A DNA stretch of 39,014 nucleotides from a virus. Taxonomy: Duplodnaviria > Heunggongvirae > Uroviricota > Caudoviricetes. Positions 10,169 through 36,696 of this stretch are shown one piece after another (the first letter of the stretch is position 1; every line of letters begins with the position of its first letter). The stretch is from the IMG/VR virus record IMGVR_UViG_2703718823_000011; one strand, given 5' to 3'. Made by a program: the position numbers and the translations under genes. The notes below the pieces were generated by a model. The model had not been told where the DNA came from, did not search any database, and worked only from the letters and a program-made list of their open reading frames with translations.

Positions 10169-10591
10169 ATGGCTGAAACACAGATGAGCATGTTTGGTGA
10201 CAGCGAACAGCTGCACGCGCTGATTGACCGTCTGGATGACATTCCTGATGATGAGCTGAAAAAGAACTGGCCCGGCACGCTGCGGGACCTGGTTGATGTG
10301 ATCAGTGCTGAACTGCACCGTCAGGGGATTGAACCTGCTCAGGCAGGAATGCTTGCCCGTAAAGTTGCGGCCGCACAGGCCGGGTACATGGGCGGGCGTG
10401 GTTATTATCTCCCGGTCGGTGAATCCCTTTTCACCGAACTGCGCAATAATGAGATTTTTTCCCGCTGGAGCCAGGGCGAAAAAATTGAAACCCTGCGCCG
10501 CCATTACAGGATGTCAGAAACCCAGATTTATACCGTCATACGCGAACAGCGCCGTCTGCATCTGGCAAGAACGCAACCGCCACTTTTCTGA
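10169..10591 (+). CDS. Mor/C-family transcriptional activator
   Basis: 140 aa; GGAGG ribosome-binding site; C-terminal helix-turn-helix region (GGRGYYLP...ETLRRHYRMSETQIYTVIREQRR) resembles Mu Mor/C; last gene before the lysis cassette. Confidence 0.8.
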   Translation: MAETQMSMFGDSEQLHALIDRLDDIPDDELKKNWPGTLRDLVDVISAELHRQGIEPAQAGMLARKVAAAQAGYMGGRGYYLPVGESLFTELRNNEIFSRWSQGEKIETLRRHYRMSETQIYTVIREQRRLHLARTQPPLF

Positions 10592-10662
10592 TATTCCGCA
10601 AAGCCTGCCGCCTTTCCTTCACCGTTACGCTGACTCAGAGAACATCATGAGACAGCGTAACA

Positions 10663-31394: not shown

Positions 31395-31942
31395 CCCTGA
31401 CCCCGCATCAGCGCGCCCTGCTGCAGTTGCTGCCTGACGGTCTGGCATGGGACAAGCGGCCGTCATCCGTTCTTGCGGCTTTGTGCCTGGGTCTCAGTCA
31501 TTCCACGGAGCGTGTTTCCTGGATCGGTAACCAGATGCTGGCAGAACGTTTTCCTGATTCATCCCGTCTGCTGCTGGAAGACTGGGAGCGTTATCTGGGG
31601 TTACCGGAATGTGATATGACCGGCGCAACCATTCAGGAGCGTCAGCGTTATGCCGGGAATAAATACCGGATGAAACCCTCTCTTAACCGTGAATTTTATA
31701 TCCGGTTTGCAACAGAGTTTGGTTATGAAATAGATATCCAGCCATCACCGGAATCACAATGGATTAGTATTGTGACAGTGAAGACGGCGGTGGGATACCG
31801 TCACATGAATGTACTGGACGATATTCTTACGCCACTGCGAATTTATGATGCAAGTGCGCTGGAGTGCATTTTAAACCGTTATAAGCCAGCCTGGCAGACG
31901 TTTTTATATCTGTACGAAAACAGTCATGAGGAGACGGAGTAA
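31385..31942 (+). CDS. Tail protein (Mu gp48-like)
   Basis: 185 aa, overlapping coupled start, immediately upstream of the tail fibre gene. Confidence 0.7.
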   Translation: MAVTLTPHQRALLQLLPDGLAWDKRPSSVLAALCLGLSHSTERVSWIGNQMLAERFPDSSRLLLEDWERYLGLPECDMTGATIQERQRYAGNKYRMKPSLNREFYIRFATEFGYEIDIQPSPESQWISIVTVKTAVGYRHMNVLDDILTPLRIYDASALECILNRYKPAWQTFLYLYENSHEETE

Positions 31943-32838
31943 TGTATTTTGTCGACAACAATTCAGGTGTGACCGATATGCCACCACTGGCCCCCTCTCA
32001 GGGCACGCAGGTTAAATGGTTTACTGAAGGTGACGGACGCAAAGGGATCAGCCATATCGGTCAGGACTGGCTGAACATCGTGCAGGCAGAGCTGCTTGCC
32101 ATTCTGACAGAAGGAAAGGTTCAGCCGGATAAGGCAAAACTGAACCAGCTGGTGACAGCCATTAAGGCAATCATTGCAGCAAACGCATACAGCCGGAAAA
32201 ACAACCTTAAGGAGATTGCGGATGCAGGTGCAGAAGCACAGGCTGCTGCCCGCCGTCATCTGGGGCTGGGAGGATTATCAGGAAAAGACAGTCTGGCTGC
32301 TGCTGATGTGGGAGCACTGGAGAAATCCCGGAATTTTGACGATGTACTGGATAAACCGACGGCTCGTCTGAATCTTGATGTTTACAGTAAGGGAGAAGGC
32401 GATGCGCGTTATCTGCGCAGGGACCAGAATGGCGCGGATATCCCGGACAAAGGAACCTTTATCAATAACCTCGGTTTACGGGAAACGGTAAATAAGGCGG
32501 CGAATGCCCTGCCATCGGACGGCACCGCTGCGGCAGCAAACAGACTCGCCACCCCAGTAAATATTAATGGTGTTCCTTTCGACGGGACGCGGGATATAAA
32601 CATTACGTCAGGAATGCCGGAATCAACGGCCAATCAGCGTTATGTTACAGGGGTAAGACTGGGAGCGCAGGCATTAAGCAGCGGACTGGAATATAATTAC
32701 TCCCTGTCATCAGGAAATGTGATTACCGGTTTTAAGACTGACGGAGACTGGGAAATGCGTGGTGGTGATGACCGTGTTTATTACAGACAGATACAATATT
32801 GTATTAATGGGAATTGGGTATCCGCTGCAAGTATTTAA
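31942..32838 (+). CDS. Tail fibre protein S: constant N-terminal part plus currently expressed variable C-terminus
   Basis: 298 aa; the crossover site lies at about codon 177; C-terminal part homologous to the inverted cassette at 33515-33896. Confidence 0.8.
   Translation: MYFVDNNSGVTDMPPLAPSQGTQVKWFTEGDGRKGISHIGQDWLNIVQAELLAILTEGKVQPDKAKLNQLVTAIKAIIAANAYSRKNNLKEIADAGAEAQAAARRHLGLGGLSGKDSLAAADVGALEKSRNFDDVLDKPTARLNLDVYSKGEGDARYLRRDQNGADIPDKGTFINNLGLRETVNKAANALPSDGTAAAANRLATPVNINGVPFDGTRDINITSGMPESTANQRYVTGVRLGAQALSSGLEYNYSLSSGNVITGFKTDGDWEMRGGDDRVYYRQIQYCINGNWVSAASI
32459..32484. other. Left recombination site of the invertible segment (gix-like)
   Basis: TTATCAATAACC-TC-GGTTTACGGGAA; near-match to the Mu gix site as recalled (TTATCCAAAACC-TC-GGTTTACAGGAA); inverted homology to 33884-33909. 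Confidence 0.7.
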
Positions 32839-32958
32839 TTAACGGCTCATGGCGTACGGCAGGCAGCGCCTGATATATGCGTTATCTCAGACAACCCCTG
32901 TCCGTATATAGCGATAGTATTATTCCTGTTTTTATCATTGATTCACATGGTGATGTTT

Positions 32959-33480
32959 ATGCAACTGATTAATGTTAAACGATATTACCCGGAAAACACC
33001 CTCTATGGTAATGATGTACAGTATTTTCAGAGTGAAGATGGTAAGGATTTCTACGAGTCCCTGCCATTATTCACCAAAAAATATAAACTTTGTATAACAC
33101 CTGACAGCGGCATTATCTGCTCAATATCACAGGACGCTTCGGCGCTGTATCCTGCGGGGTTCTCTGTGGTTGAAGTCGACGAACTCCCTGAAGGTGCTGA
33201 TATTTCGGGTAACTGGAAGTTTGATAATGGCGTGATCTCCCGTATTCCGGTTAACTACGCAAGAAAACTGGAAGCAATGCGCCAGTTATATCTTAATCAG
33301 GCATATGAAAAAATTAATGACTGGAGAACAGAATTACAGCTGGGCACCATCAGTGATGAAGACAGAGCCGCACTTACCCGATGGATGGCATACATCAGTC
33401 AGGTGAAAAAAATGGAACCATCCGCCATTAAAACTGAAGCTGAATTTGATGCCATTAAATGGCCCGAACAGCCTGAATAA
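32959..33480 (+). CDS. Tail fibre assembly protein (Mu U-like)
   Basis: Ends ...KWPEQPE like Mu U as recalled; AT-rich; start uncertain (track TTG 32938; ATGs at 32947, 32953, 32959). Confidence 0.75.
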   Translation: MQLINVKRYYPENTLYGNDVQYFQSEDGKDFYESLPLFTKKYKLCITPDSGIICSISQDASALYPAGFSVVEVDELPEGADISGNWKFDNGVISRIPVNYARKLEAMRQLYLNQAYEKINDWRTELQLGTISDEDRAALTRWMAYISQVKKMEPSAIKTEAEFDAIKWPEQPE

Positions 33481-33514
33481 CTTAAAGGGTGCTTATCGCA
33501 CCCTTTTTCTTTCA

Positions 33515-33896
33515 TCAGACAGATGAAACTGTACGCCATGCATTACTGATATATATCTGCACAGGACGGAAATAAACCCCGCCAATGTTATCGGCAGAGT
33601 TTTTTCCTGTTTCCTGCACGTTAATACCGGAAAGCATACAACCGGAAGGCGCACTGTAATTCCATGACATTTCATTGCCTCCGGGTGAATGATAGCTCTG
33701 TGCTCCAAGCTGAACGTTCTGTACATACCGGCCATCTGCGGTTGACTGCGTCATTCCTGACGTGATGTTGATATCCTGCGTCCCGTCGAAAGGAACACCA
33801 TTAATATTTACTGGGGTGGCGAGTCTGTTTGCTGCCACGGCGGTTCCACCCGATGGCAGGGCATCAGCAGCCTTATTTACCGTTTCCCGTAAACCG
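33515..33896 (-). CDS. Alternative tail fibre C-terminal cassette (S'v), no own start; expressed only after inversion
   Basis: Minus-strand frame open from the right recombination site to the stop at 33515; encodes AANRLATPVNINGVPFDGTQDINITSGM... paralogous to the S C-terminus, then diverges. Confidence 0.7.
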
Positions 33897-33909
33897 AGGT
33901 TTCAGGGAT
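33884..33909. other. Right recombination site of the invertible segment (gix-like)
   Basis: TTCCCGTAAACC-GA-GGTTTCAGGGAT, inverted relative to the left site. Confidence 0.7.
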
Positions 33910-33963
33910 GCCGTATATCTGCTTTAAAAGGCCTTTCCACCTCTTTTTAAGGAAGGTAAATAC

Positions 33964-34524
33964 ATGCTGATTGGCTATATACGCGTATCAACAAATGACC
34001 AGAACACAGGTTTACAAAGAAATGCGCTGGAATGTGCAGGATGTGAGCAGATTTTTGAAGATAAAATGAGCGGAAAAACAACGCAGCGGCCGGGACTGAA
34101 GCGGGCACTGAAGAAACTAAAACCCGGTGACACGCTGATGGTCTGGAAACTGGACAGGCTGGGGCGCAGTATGCGCCACCTTGTTGCGCTGACAGATGAA
34201 TTACAGCAACAGGGGATAAATTTTCGTAGTCTTACTGACAGCATTGATACGTCAACCCCCATGGGGCGCTTCTTTTTTCACATAATGGGTGCGCTGGCAG
34301 AAATGGAGCGTGAATTGATTGTCGAACGGACACGGGCTGGTCTTACAGCTGCCCGTGAAAGGGGACGAACCGGCGGCAGACCCCGTCGTCTCACGCAGGA
34401 ACAATACGAGCAGGTCGGGCGTTTACTGGCCGGGGGGGTCAGCCGAAGACAGGTGGCACTTATTTTTGATATCGGCCTTTCAACCCTTTATCGTTATTAT
34501 CCTGCGAGCGTTTTGGAAAAATAA
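33964..34524 (+). CDS. gin: Serine DNA invertase Gin (Hin/Gin/Cin family)
   Basis: 186 aa; MLIGYIRVSTNDQN... with catalytic serine context, near-colinear with Gin as recalled; C-terminal helix-turn-helix. Confidence 0.95.
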   Translation: MLIGYIRVSTNDQNTGLQRNALECAGCEQIFEDKMSGKTTQRPGLKRALKKLKPGDTLMVWKLDRLGRSMRHLVALTDELQQQGINFRSLTDSIDTSTPMGRFFFHIMGALAEMERELIVERTRAGLTAARERGRTGGRPRRLTQEQYEQVGRLLAGGVSRRQVALIFDIGLSTLYRYYPASVLEK

Positions 34525-34614: not shown

Positions 34615-36696
34615 ATGAATATTATGACGTCCAAATGGGTTCAACTATCATCAATGCCCGGAAACTTTACCGTTAAAGTTTCCGGTGGTACAGCGGCATT
34701 TCTTGAGGCTCCCTTTCCTCCGGCTGAAACGAAAGGAGGTATGACATTTGCTGACTGTCTCATCAGTTTTAATACACGGGATTGCCTGTGGGTAAGGCCA
34801 GTATCCGGTGATCCGAACGTGGAAATTACCGGAGCGGGTATTGGTGCTGTCATTCCGTTAAGTGCTGATGTTGCCGGTACTACTGAACCGTCAGACTGGA
34901 ACAATGCGGAAACATACACTTCCTCAGCAGGAGATAAAGTTGCAGGTCAAACTCCGTCCTGGTATTACGTGGTTGTTATTGCTGGTCAGTCGAATGCATC
35001 GTCATTTGGTGAAGGTCTTCCTTTGCCTGATACCTATGATCGACCTGATCCACGTATTAAACAGCTGGCTCGCCGTAACACGGTTACACCTGGCGGGGTT
35101 GAATGCGCCTACAACGATATAATTCCGGCAGATCACTGTCTTCATGATGTGCTGGATATGAGTAACCATAATCATCCAAAAGCAGATCTTTCAAAAGGTC
35201 AGTATGGTTGTGTCGGCCAGGGTTTGCATATTGCAAAAAAACTCCTGCCCTTTATCCCGGAAGAGGCTGGTATCCTTCTGGTTCCCTGTGCCAGAGGAGG
35301 CTCTGCATTTACCGATGGTGCTGATGGTGAATTTACTGAAGCTTCCGGAGCAACATCTGCATCATCGCGCTGGGGAGTCAATAAACCTTTGTTCAGCGAT
35401 CTTGTTAACCGAACAAAAGCGGCTCTCAGCAGTAACCCCAGAAATATTCTCCTGTCCGTTGTCTGGATGCAGGGCGAGAATGATCTGAAAACAGGAAAAC
35501 ATGCTGAACATTCCGGTCTGTTTGTGACGATGGTCGAAACATTCAGGCGTGAACTTTCGGCTTTTTCTGCGCAATCTCCAGCCGGAGATATGGCTTCTGT
35601 ACCGTGGATCTGTGGTGATACGACGTATTACTGGAAAAATACATATCCAGAACAATACAAAGCTGTTTATGGCAAATATGCTAATGAAGCAAAGAACATT
35701 CACTTTGTTCCATTTGTTGTGGATGAAAATGGAAAAAATGTACCGACAAATAATCCAGATGAAGACCCGGATATTCCAGGTATTGGCTATTATGGTGCCA
35801 TAAGTCGCGATTCGACTAACTGGACATCAAACGACAGGGCAAGCCATTTCAGTTCATGGGCGCGCCGTGGAATTATTTCAGACCGTCTGGCAACAGCGAT
35901 TCTGACATTGTCAGGACAAAAATCTGCTTTCTTCCGCGGTGTAACGGCAACAGAACATTCTGATACCGGTAAGAGTGAGCCTGAACCCACCGGGGATGTG
36001 AAGGACGTGAGCGATCAGATGAAGATCATCGTTTCGTATACTGCAAACGCCCCGACAGAACCAATGAAAGATCAGGGGTGGAATGCGGCTTCCGGAAAAG
36101 CAACCTTTGTCACGGATGCTGCTGCAACAGGTGGTAACAAAGCGTTAAGGGTGAATAAAGCGCCTAACAGCATGGCCTCATGGAAAATGTATCATCCGAT
36201 CACAGCTGATAATGCCAGGGATTTGTTCGCCAGAGGTGGTGATATTTCCCTCCGTTTCAAAATTCCATCGGATGCGGGCATTGCGGAAAACCGGTATGGT
36301 GTTGGTATTTACTGGGCTGTAAGTAACTGGCCTGACGGTGACGGAAAAAATAACCTCATCGCATCATGTTTCCTGCAAACGGATTCAGCTAACCTGAATG
36401 TGATGTATCACAAAGGGAGCGGAAGTCAACAGATAGGATCGTATGGTGTCTTTGATCATGAATGGCATACGCTCTCGTTACGGTTTGCAGGTGGTAATAG
36501 CATGAGTGTTACCCCAGTTCTGGACGGGAAAGATGGTGAACCATTTGAACTTGTGAAGTGGGTGAATGCCGGGTTCACGGTGGATCAACTGACACTGACC
36601 GATATTACCGGCAATGCAGCCACTTACCCGATGTTGTTTGACACAATTAAAGTGCAGGTTAACGATGCGGTCTCTCCGTCTAATGTGAATAAATGA
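34615..36696 (+). CDS. SASA/SGNH-type carbohydrate O-acetylesterase with lectin-like C-terminal domain (prophage cargo; NanS-p-like candidate)
   Basis: 693 aa; GQSN nucleophile motif (about 34984-34995), ...CARGGSAF..., WMQGENDL block (about 35467-35487); C-terminal ~180 aa resembles a concanavalin/LamG-type jelly roll; own ribosome-binding site; AT-richer than the structural genes. Confidence 0.8.
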   Translation: MNIMTSKWVQLSSMPGNFTVKVSGGTAAFLEAPFPPAETKGGMTFADCLISFNTRDCLWVRPVSGDPNVEITGAGIGAVIPLSADVAGTTEPSDWNNAETYTSSAGDKVAGQTPSWYYVVVIAGQSNASSFGEGLPLPDTYDRPDPRIKQLARRNTVTPGGVECAYNDIIPADHCLHDVLDMSNHNHPKADLSKGQYGCVGQGLHIAKKLLPFIPEEAGILLVPCARGGSAFTDGADGEFTEASGATSASSRWGVNKPLFSDLVNRTKAALSSNPRNILLSVVWMQGENDLKTGKHAEHSGLFVTMVETFRRELSAFSAQSPAGDMASVPWICGDTTYYWKNTYPEQYKAVYGKYANEAKNIHFVPFVVDENGKNVPTNNPDEDPDIPGIGYYGAISRDSTNWTSNDRASHFSSWARRGIISDRLATAILTLSGQKSAFFRGVTATEHSDTGKSEPEPTGDVKDVSDQMKIIVSYTANAPTEPMKDQGWNAASGKATFVTDAAATGGNKALRVNKAPNSMASWKMYHPITADNARDLFARGGDISLRFKIPSDAGIAENRYGVGIYWAVSNWPDGDGKNNLIASCFLQTDSANLNVMYHKGSGSQQIGSYGVFDHEWHTLSLRFAGGNSMSVTPVLDGKDGEPFELVKWVNAGFTVDQLTLTDITGNAATYPMLFDTIKVQVNDAVSPSNVNK

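Follow-up and report, generated by a model that had tools for sequence, protein, structure and literature searches.

A single tail fibre assembly gene between two alternative fibre tips in the invertible segment of an Sp18-like Mu-family prophage

In the textbook invertible host-range segments of Mu, P1 and e14, each fibre variant has its own co-transcribed chaperone. The present analysis concerns a segment built otherwise, in the viral record IMGVR_UViG_2703718823_000011 of IMG/VR, a stretch of 39,014 nucleotides (hereafter the window) which is an Sp18-like Mu-family prophage, identical to the Mu-like prophage in Escherichia coli STEC2018-607 (NZ_CP075697.1); next to its gin invertase gene lies an invertible segment holding two alternative fibre tips, Sv and S'v, and one tail fibre assembly (tfa) gene, U. 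We consider it probable that U encodes one generalist chaperone which is transcribed as its own unit and serves both tips, a view drawn from the occurrence of both orientations in nature, from lineages fixed with U antisense to the fibre gene in which U remains constrained, from the free combination of tips and U alleles, and from the long spacer and the hairpin that bracket U. A reading made earlier from the sequence alone had described the anatomy and the puzzle of two tips with one chaperone, and had offered three ways out, namely that S'v needs no chaperone, that U is supplied in trans, or that the alternative orientation is non-functional; anatomy and puzzle have stood, and what the evidence leaves of the three options is a U made independently of orientation.

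In the proposed mechanism, Gin would recombine two gix sites lying inside S and thereby invert about 1.43 kb, exchanging the last 125 or so codons of the gene, of which about 60 are shared, being encoded in a repeat, and 65-72 form the variable tip; the products would be S (298 aa) and S' (303 aa), with tips of the same small tip-domain family as those of Mu S and S'. U would be the partner of neither tip alone and would, as a generalist, fold both; it would be preceded by a spacer with a conserved element and a -10-like hexamer, and followed by a hairpin terminator that would also separate it from the convergent S'v. Because it would be a transcription unit of its own, U would be made in both orientations. 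The features concerned are as follows.

31942-32838, plus strand: tail fibre gene S (constant Sc plus Sv), 298 aa; open reading frame (ORF), PHROG 1833 tail fibre, E 5e-116
32459-32484: gixL crossover site, TTATCAATAACCTCGGTTTACGGGAA, inside S, in the codons for FINNLGLRE
32467-32645: left inverted-repeat arm, 179 nt, from the repeat finder, 88% complementary to the right arm
32646-32838, plus strand: Sv variable tip, like the Mu S G(+) tip, 58% identical
32839-32958, plus strand: untranslated spacer of 120 nt, proposed promoter and 5' untranslated region of U, from its length, its identity profile and a -10-like hexamer
32959-33480, plus strand: U, single tail fibre assembly chaperone (tfa), 173 aa; Pfam Caudo_TAP, PHROG 136, PDB 5yvq_B
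33484-33506: palindromic GC hairpin in the gap between U and S'v; folding at -17.7 and -23.5 kcal/mol, z -4.4 and -5.5
33515-33722, minus strand: S'v variable tip (Sp type), unexpressed as the segment now lies; open frame that runs on into the repeat arm, PHROG 1833
33723-33901: right inverted-repeat arm, 179 nt, from the repeat finder
33884-33909: gixR crossover site, reverse complement ATCCCTGAAACCTCGGTTTACGGGAA
33964-34524, plus strand: gin-like serine DNA invertase, 186 aa; Pfam Resolvase and HTH_7, PHROG 125 DNA invertase

The element belongs among the invertible fibre segments of the Gin/Pin type and works like them: the invertase, the gix sites, the crossover within the gene and both orientations in nature are all found. 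The limits that the sequence-only reading had given, 32459-33909, coincide exactly with the start of gixL and the end of gixR, and the gin gene that it had placed beside the segment is there, intact, at 33964-34524; the gix-like sites and the size of 1.4 kb were likewise borne out, the repeat length of about 150 bp being the part in need of correction, to 179 nt. The only strong inverted repeat reported by the repeat finder (32467-32645 and 33723-33901) includes uninterrupted matches of about 36 and about 59 nt; the gix sites are at its outer ends, in inverted relative orientation, with an identical core AACC-TC-GGTT and the same central dinucleotide, the two crossover dinucleotides being about 1,425 bp apart. 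Compared with the Mu gix as read from the Mu genome, gixL agrees at 23 of 26 positions, and the peptide encoded across it occupies in S the position equivalent to that in Mu S (FINNLGLRETVN versus FIQNLGLQETVN, FI.NLGL.ETVN, in the 5yvq_A alignment). The gin product is 75% identical to Mu Gin and keeps the VSTNDQ catalytic serine motif; the region of the Fis enhancer in the 5' part of gin is about 80% identical to that of Mu, with one Fis-like 15-mer kept (34034) and the other changed at one consensus position. To judge from their sequences, gix sites and gin are intact. An Rfam search of the segment gave no significant match.

The fibre gene is a short version of its Mu homologue, with counterparts of the N-terminal baseplate-attachment region and of the tip domain: residues 1-196 of S align with Mu S 1-189 and residues 230-297 with the Mu S tip, 436-503 (PDB 5yvq_A, E 9e-64), the middle 250 or so residues of Mu S being missing. 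The left repeat arm encodes the 60 or so residues common to both fibre variants, and the inverted cassette 33515-33901 (minus strand) is an open frame throughout; in-silico inversion yields an open S' of 303 aa, which is annotated as a 912-bp coding sequence in two sibling loci, L002 and L003, and the S'v tip is homologous both to the Mu S tip (5yvq_A 434-503) and to the short tail fibre tip 9cuy. The content attributed to the segment, that is Sv, one U-like gene and an inverted S'v cassette, was recovered in all three parts by ORFs, PHROG and Pfam. U itself matches Caudo_TAP (PF02413; E 3.6e-19, cut-off 22.1 bits) and Mu U (PDB 5yvq_B, E 6e-17) and is 33% identical to Mu U'. The proposed lack of a U' partner holds: tblastn with U, Mu U and Mu U' found no second tfa, short or otherwise, anywhere in the 39 kb window, and the longest minus-strand ORF within U has 46 aa. 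The gap of 34 bp between U and S'v is likewise as first described (33481-33514), and in-silico inversion and inverted relatives agree that after inversion U lies antisense downstream of S'v. U is intact in every relative compared.

Both orientations of the segment were searched against 5,426 complete E. coli genomes by megablast, with co-linear query coverage of at least 80%. The orientation of the window, with U in the sense of S, was found in 17/5,426 genomes and the in-silico inverted form, with U antisense to S, in 184/5,426, so that the layout is a common one, present in about 200 genomes, and the U-antisense orientation makes up about 90% of them. In the siblings L002 and L003 (97% identity; strains JNEC-KY203 and STEC1587) the segment is inverted and an identical Tfa, WP_024192107.1, is on the opposite strand; similarly, Z869 (U sense) and Z852 (U antisense) both have Tfa WP_001473653.1. 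Both orientations, and not a single one, thus occur among close relatives with identical Tfa, as known from comparison across genomes. Z869 and Z852 were also considered as a clonal pair in which the segment had flipped in situ, and this was rejected, the two prophages being independent insertions: in these O157:H7 loci (L093, Z869; L094, Z852) the Mu-like prophage lies within lambdoid tail genes, those for tail assembly protein T and the tape measure. Two Shiga toxin (Stx) phage records in the phage collection also contain an 'inserted Mu-like phage'; given such insertions in lambdoid tail genes and Stx phages, Mu-type insertion inactivates other prophages. Inversion in Mu lysogens is slow; if this applies to lysogens here, the orientation would partly record the fibre used at infection, and the S' fibre would then work on E. 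coli.

Whether the U-antisense orientation is functional can be approached from the selection acting on its genes, for which ratios of nonsynonymous to synonymous substitution rates (dN/dS) were estimated pairwise by the Nei-Gojobori method. For tips of the Sp type in the downstream position dN/dS is 0.05-0.12 (dS 0.75-2), for those of the Z type 0.05-0.16 and for U 0.10-0.23; the S'v-side tip and U are both under strong purifying selection. The Sv cassette is near-identical across lineages, in itself a sign of recent lateral spread, and dN/dS is therefore without power for it. Between the window and the O157:H7 locus L004, dS is about 0 for the Sv cassette and 0.8-2 for U and the S'v tip, which indicates a recent lateral transfer of the Sv cassette alone; the cassette (32600-32838) is about 100% identical to the Sp18-like copy in L004, and the adjacent U and S'v tip only 60-80%.

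These values bear on the proposal that U-antisense is a non-productive OFF state, or S'v a decaying remnant, with the differences in orientation produced by occasional RecA recombination between the 179-nt repeats, whose perfect runs are indeed long enough for homologous recombination; enhancer conservation is partial, and no in-situ flip within one clone was seen, Z869 and Z852 being independent insertions. S'v-type tips nevertheless show dN/dS of 0.05-0.12, with dS reaching 2, and their frame is open at nearly all loci, some 90% of the prophages are in the antisense orientation, lineages fixed with S' have transposed or infected repeatedly, and gix sites and gin are intact; we regard an OFF state or remnant as highly improbable, and the option of a non-functional alternative orientation is contradicted by the tip dN/dS, by the share of antisense genomes and by the independent insertions of gin-less relatives described below.

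The gin-less relatives comprise seven IMG/VR loci (L018, L019, L021-24 and L026) and seven complete genomes, and are without gin, without the upstream tip (tipA) and without the inverted repeat. They are co-linear with the inverted window through the baseplate genes, S', hairpin, antisense U and spacer, after which come about 213 unrelated nt and a DUF6645 gene. These phages have one fibre gene and one tfa, and the two converge. The prophage interrupts xdhA in CI5, bcsA in S1-CAM-01-A and Flag-2 flgL in M3, with the tail genes all annotated as intact; the three different interrupted host genes imply independent Mu-type insertions in unrelated hosts, and the carriers of the form include commensal, mouse and clinical strains. 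U is full length in these lineages, with dN/dS of 0.10-0.23 at dS of 0.11-0.43. Lineages fixed with U antisense are, as their genomes suggest, evidently viable; the gin-less form may be derived by deletion or may be ancestral.

It is also against these lineages that one has to set the explanation in which the S'v fibre folds without a chaperone and U serves only the co-transcribed Sv, falling silent after inversion. After inversion U is indeed antisense, and the hairpin behind S'v would block read-through into it; a sigma-70 consensus promoter is not detectable before U, and the tips, at 65-72 aa, are small. Yet the gin-less lineages, which lack an Sv-side cassette, keep a full-length U under constraint (dN/dS 0.10-0.23) and have spread by separate insertions to different sites; the class of the U allele does not follow the type of the tip upstream of it, and both Sv and S'v belong to the domain family of the Mu S tip, to which Mu U is bound in 5yvq. 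Since lineages with only the S'v-side tip retain a constrained U, the suggestion that S'v needs no chaperone is made unlikely, and we think this explanation unlikely as a whole.

How far tips and chaperone are matched to each other was surveyed by scanning IMG/VR with U, which gave 80 loci, classified by tblastn. Every Sp18-like locus (L001-L037) has a single tfa, with a tip in the same orientation before it (tipA) and a convergent one behind it (tipB). The tips are of five types (Sv, Sp, X, Y and Z), all of which align, together with the Mu S and S' tips, as one domain of 65-72 residues with six invariant positions (G, G, G, R, Q, W). There are two classes of U allele, set apart by the C-terminal half; the N-terminal half is conserved throughout. 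In PMC9608196, which cites North et al. 2019, the N-terminal half of Tfa proteins is described as the fibre-binding domain. Alleles of the U1/U2 class are found beside Sv, Sp, Y and Z, and U3 beside Sv, Sp and X, in the combinations Sv/U1/Sp (window), Sv/U3/Sp (O157:H7), X/U3/Sp and Y/U2/Z; from this free combination it follows that U varies independently of both neighbours. In nearly all loci the cassettes have open frames, the silent as well as the expressed ones; frameshifts were seen in tipA of L010 and tipB of L015, some copies of the switch being not intact. Two scans of a species-representative genome collection, one with U and one with a U alignment, gave almost no matches. In the phage collection the characterised relatives are only Yersinia Mu-like phages, with a classical two-tfa segment, and the two Stx phage records that carry a Mu-like insertion, and the collection holds no isolated phage of the one-tfa design.

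In the antisense orientation a chaperone might instead be supplied in trans, by the tfa genes of co-resident prophages, of which Shiga toxin-producing E. coli (STEC) carry many, lambdoid and P2-like. That Tfa proteins are modular, with a conserved C-terminal assembly domain (PMC9608196), fits such a loan, as does the poly-lysogeny of the hosts, in Z869 and Z852, for example, with the Mu-like phage inside other prophages; a phage dependent on helpers, however, could not count on becoming established in a new host, the gin-less form sits at unrelated loci in commensal, mouse and clinical strains, its own U is still constrained, and the nearest other tfa families are just 33-56% identical to U. 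Supply in trans is accordingly, in our judgement, quite unlikely, and from the sequences compared we infer that U acts on both tips.

For a generalist U to be available in both orientations it would have to be expressed separately from the fibre gene, and the arrangement of the locus suggests this. The gap between fibre and chaperone genes is 2 nt in Mu and 1 nt in e14, as against 120 nt in the window; in the invertible relatives the spacer between tipA and U comes in three AT-rich sequence types that are unrelated to one another and measure 120/121, 51 and 79 nt, whereas in co-linear relatives (seven junction types) the fibre-tfa gap is at most 20 nt and has a Shine-Dalgarno (SD) sequence. 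By this measure U is uncoupled from the fibre gene. In the window the spacer holds a -10-like TATTAT at 32918-32923 and an SD-like GGTGA at 32948-32952; between the window and L004 its last 60 nt and the first 40 nt of U are 93-97% identical, flanked by the 5' half of the spacer at 72-82% and the body of U at 60-80%. A region of about 305 nt upstream of U is nearly invariant in the gin-less lineage, although U itself has dS of 0.11-0.43; across this intergenic region the DUF6645 gene of the gin-less relatives is divergent from U. All three spacer types have a 5/6 match to a -10 hexamer ending 34-35 nt before the ATG, and none has a -35 element; a -10 without a -35 is the pattern described for Mu late promoters (PMC2582627). 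Downstream of U, a GC hairpin occurs in the 31-35-nt gap between U and tipB in all three segment types, with differing sequences, the one in the window being flanked by a U-tract on the side of U. This hairpin probably terminates U transcripts and, after inversion, would act as a barrier or terminator for those of S'. The genes to the right of the segment (gin, DUF6645 etc.) all read rightward, and there is therefore no obvious read-through into antisense U from outside. The long spacer, the conserved island and the terminator hairpin together suggest that U is its own transcription unit, and we infer a promoter in or beside the spacer.

Consensus scans for sigma-70 promoters covered the window, L011, L019 and L031, and the sole match above chance was ATGATA-17-TATAAT in the gin-less L019, pointing at U, at 10/12 positions. 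A profile of the Mu late promoter (C-box plus -10) was built from the four annotated Mu late promoters. The C activator of the window phage is only 40% identical to Mu C, and the regions where Plys and PI are expected (10169-10662 and 18387-18561) are without a match to the Mu C-box profile; this phage family apparently has another recognition sequence at its late promoters than Mu has. The motif ACAACCCC in the spacer was considered as a Mu-type late-promoter element and rejected, as it is not conserved in L004.

Several points weigh against a generalist chaperone with a transcription unit of its own. The 184:17 count includes clonal genomes and depends on the megablast coverage threshold, pairwise dN/dS across recombining lineages cannot date the constraint to the antisense period, and the lineages fixed with U antisense are known from genomes alone. 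As regards the putative promoter, the conserved island could be a recombination-module boundary or a translation-initiation element instead; the -10-like hexamer was found post hoc, and one arises within the 20-45 nt window in 20-45% of shuffles per spacer; the sigma-70 scans gave no promoter-like site upstream of U on the U strand in type 2 and type 3 loci and, in the window, only a 9/12 match inside Sv, at chance level; and the Mu C-box profile finds none of the window phage's own expected late promoters.

The single-chaperone layout is a variation on the design of the Mu G segment, and the Sp18 invertible region itself was already known. In Mu (order Sc, Sv, U, U', S'v, gin) the gin gene likewise lies beside the segment and a constant N-terminus is joined to alternative C-termini; the segment of the window, however, is 1.43 kb long, as compared with 3 kb, its fibres have 298/303 aa instead of 504, its repeats 179 nt instead of 34, it has one tfa where Mu has two, and it has a hairpin between U and S'v. 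Each variant in Mu has one co-oriented chaperone directly downstream, whereas in the window U follows Sv after a gap of 120 nt and is convergent with S'v. The P segment of e14 (stfP, tfaP, tfaE, stfE, pinE) likewise has a serine invertase beside an invertible fibre-tip segment, downstream of a baseplate gene like gp48/YmfQ, but with one tfa per variant, each abutting its fibre gene, in place of a single shared and apparently uncoupled one. In P1 (Cin) and p15B (Min), too, a serine invertase adjoins an invertible fibre-tip segment. The co-linear fibre-tfa modules of P2-like and other prophages (L038-L085) have tips of the same domain family and a tfa 54-61% identical to U; unlike those of the window, their fibre and tfa genes are translationally coupled (gap at most 20 nt), and the invertible segments among them (L054, L057, L058, L061-65 and L073-75) carry a second, inverted tfa.

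The segment design is that of the Sp18-like prophages in O157:H7 and other STEC. Sp18 itself, from E. coli O157:H7 Sakai, is a Mu-like prophage that shares both family and segment design with the O157:H7 loci of the L004 type; the U of the window is a different allele from that of O157:H7 (64% identity), with the same two tips. The invertible region of Sp18 was mentioned in one sentence in 2009 by Asadulghani et al. (PMC2669165), who report Sp18 to be intact and to be packaged efficiently. No other analysis of the region was found, and the searchable papers contain no description of the lone chaperone, of its antisense placement, of the spacer, of the hairpin or of the gin-less forms; neither was a described single-chaperone invertible segment found, in a search that left most older subscription papers outside, so that a prior account is possible.

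The remainder of the window follows the gene order of Mu: repressor, A, B, C, lys, head, tail, baseplate, gp48, S, gin and com/mom. Where Mu has nothing between gin and com/mom, the window has, at 34615-36696 (plus strand), a gene for a protein of 693 aa with a SASA carbohydrate-esterase domain and a C-terminal DUF6645, which could be a virion-associated or receptor-modifying enzyme. In the RefSeq record of STEC2018-607 the intact 298-aa S is unannotated, and small ORFs are called within or antisense to it; ORFs for hypothetical proteins antisense to both repeat arms are found in several genomes (in the window, 32409-32633, minus strand, and 33762-33950, plus strand) and are probably artefacts of the conserved repeat.

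A bolder form of the proposal, which we put forward tentatively and would not expect to hold in full, is that U is tip-agnostic and has its own activator-dependent late promoter, that the convergent pair of S and U is the basic and possibly ancestral module, and that the switch arose by the docking of gin and a second-tip cassette onto it. If true, this would be the simplest known programmable host-range device, in which freely exchanged tips of 65-72 residues, in the five types observed, are served by one generic chaperone in any orientation of the DNA.

The design of one chaperone per variant has been taken as a sign that the chaperones are tip-specific. A widespread family with at least five tips and one uncoupled chaperone argues that Tfa is generic within the tip-domain family, and that the expression of the chaperone is separable from that of the fibre; it also suggests that the swap of a tip of about 70 residues suffices to retarget a fibre, which bears on the engineering of host range in phages and tailocins. 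The layout is relevant as well to the annotation of prophage fibre modules, whose genes the Prokaryotic Genome Annotation Pipeline (PGAP) misses or fragments, and to the orientation of the segment in STEC genomes. It is a compact variation on a known mechanism, which overturns no principle.

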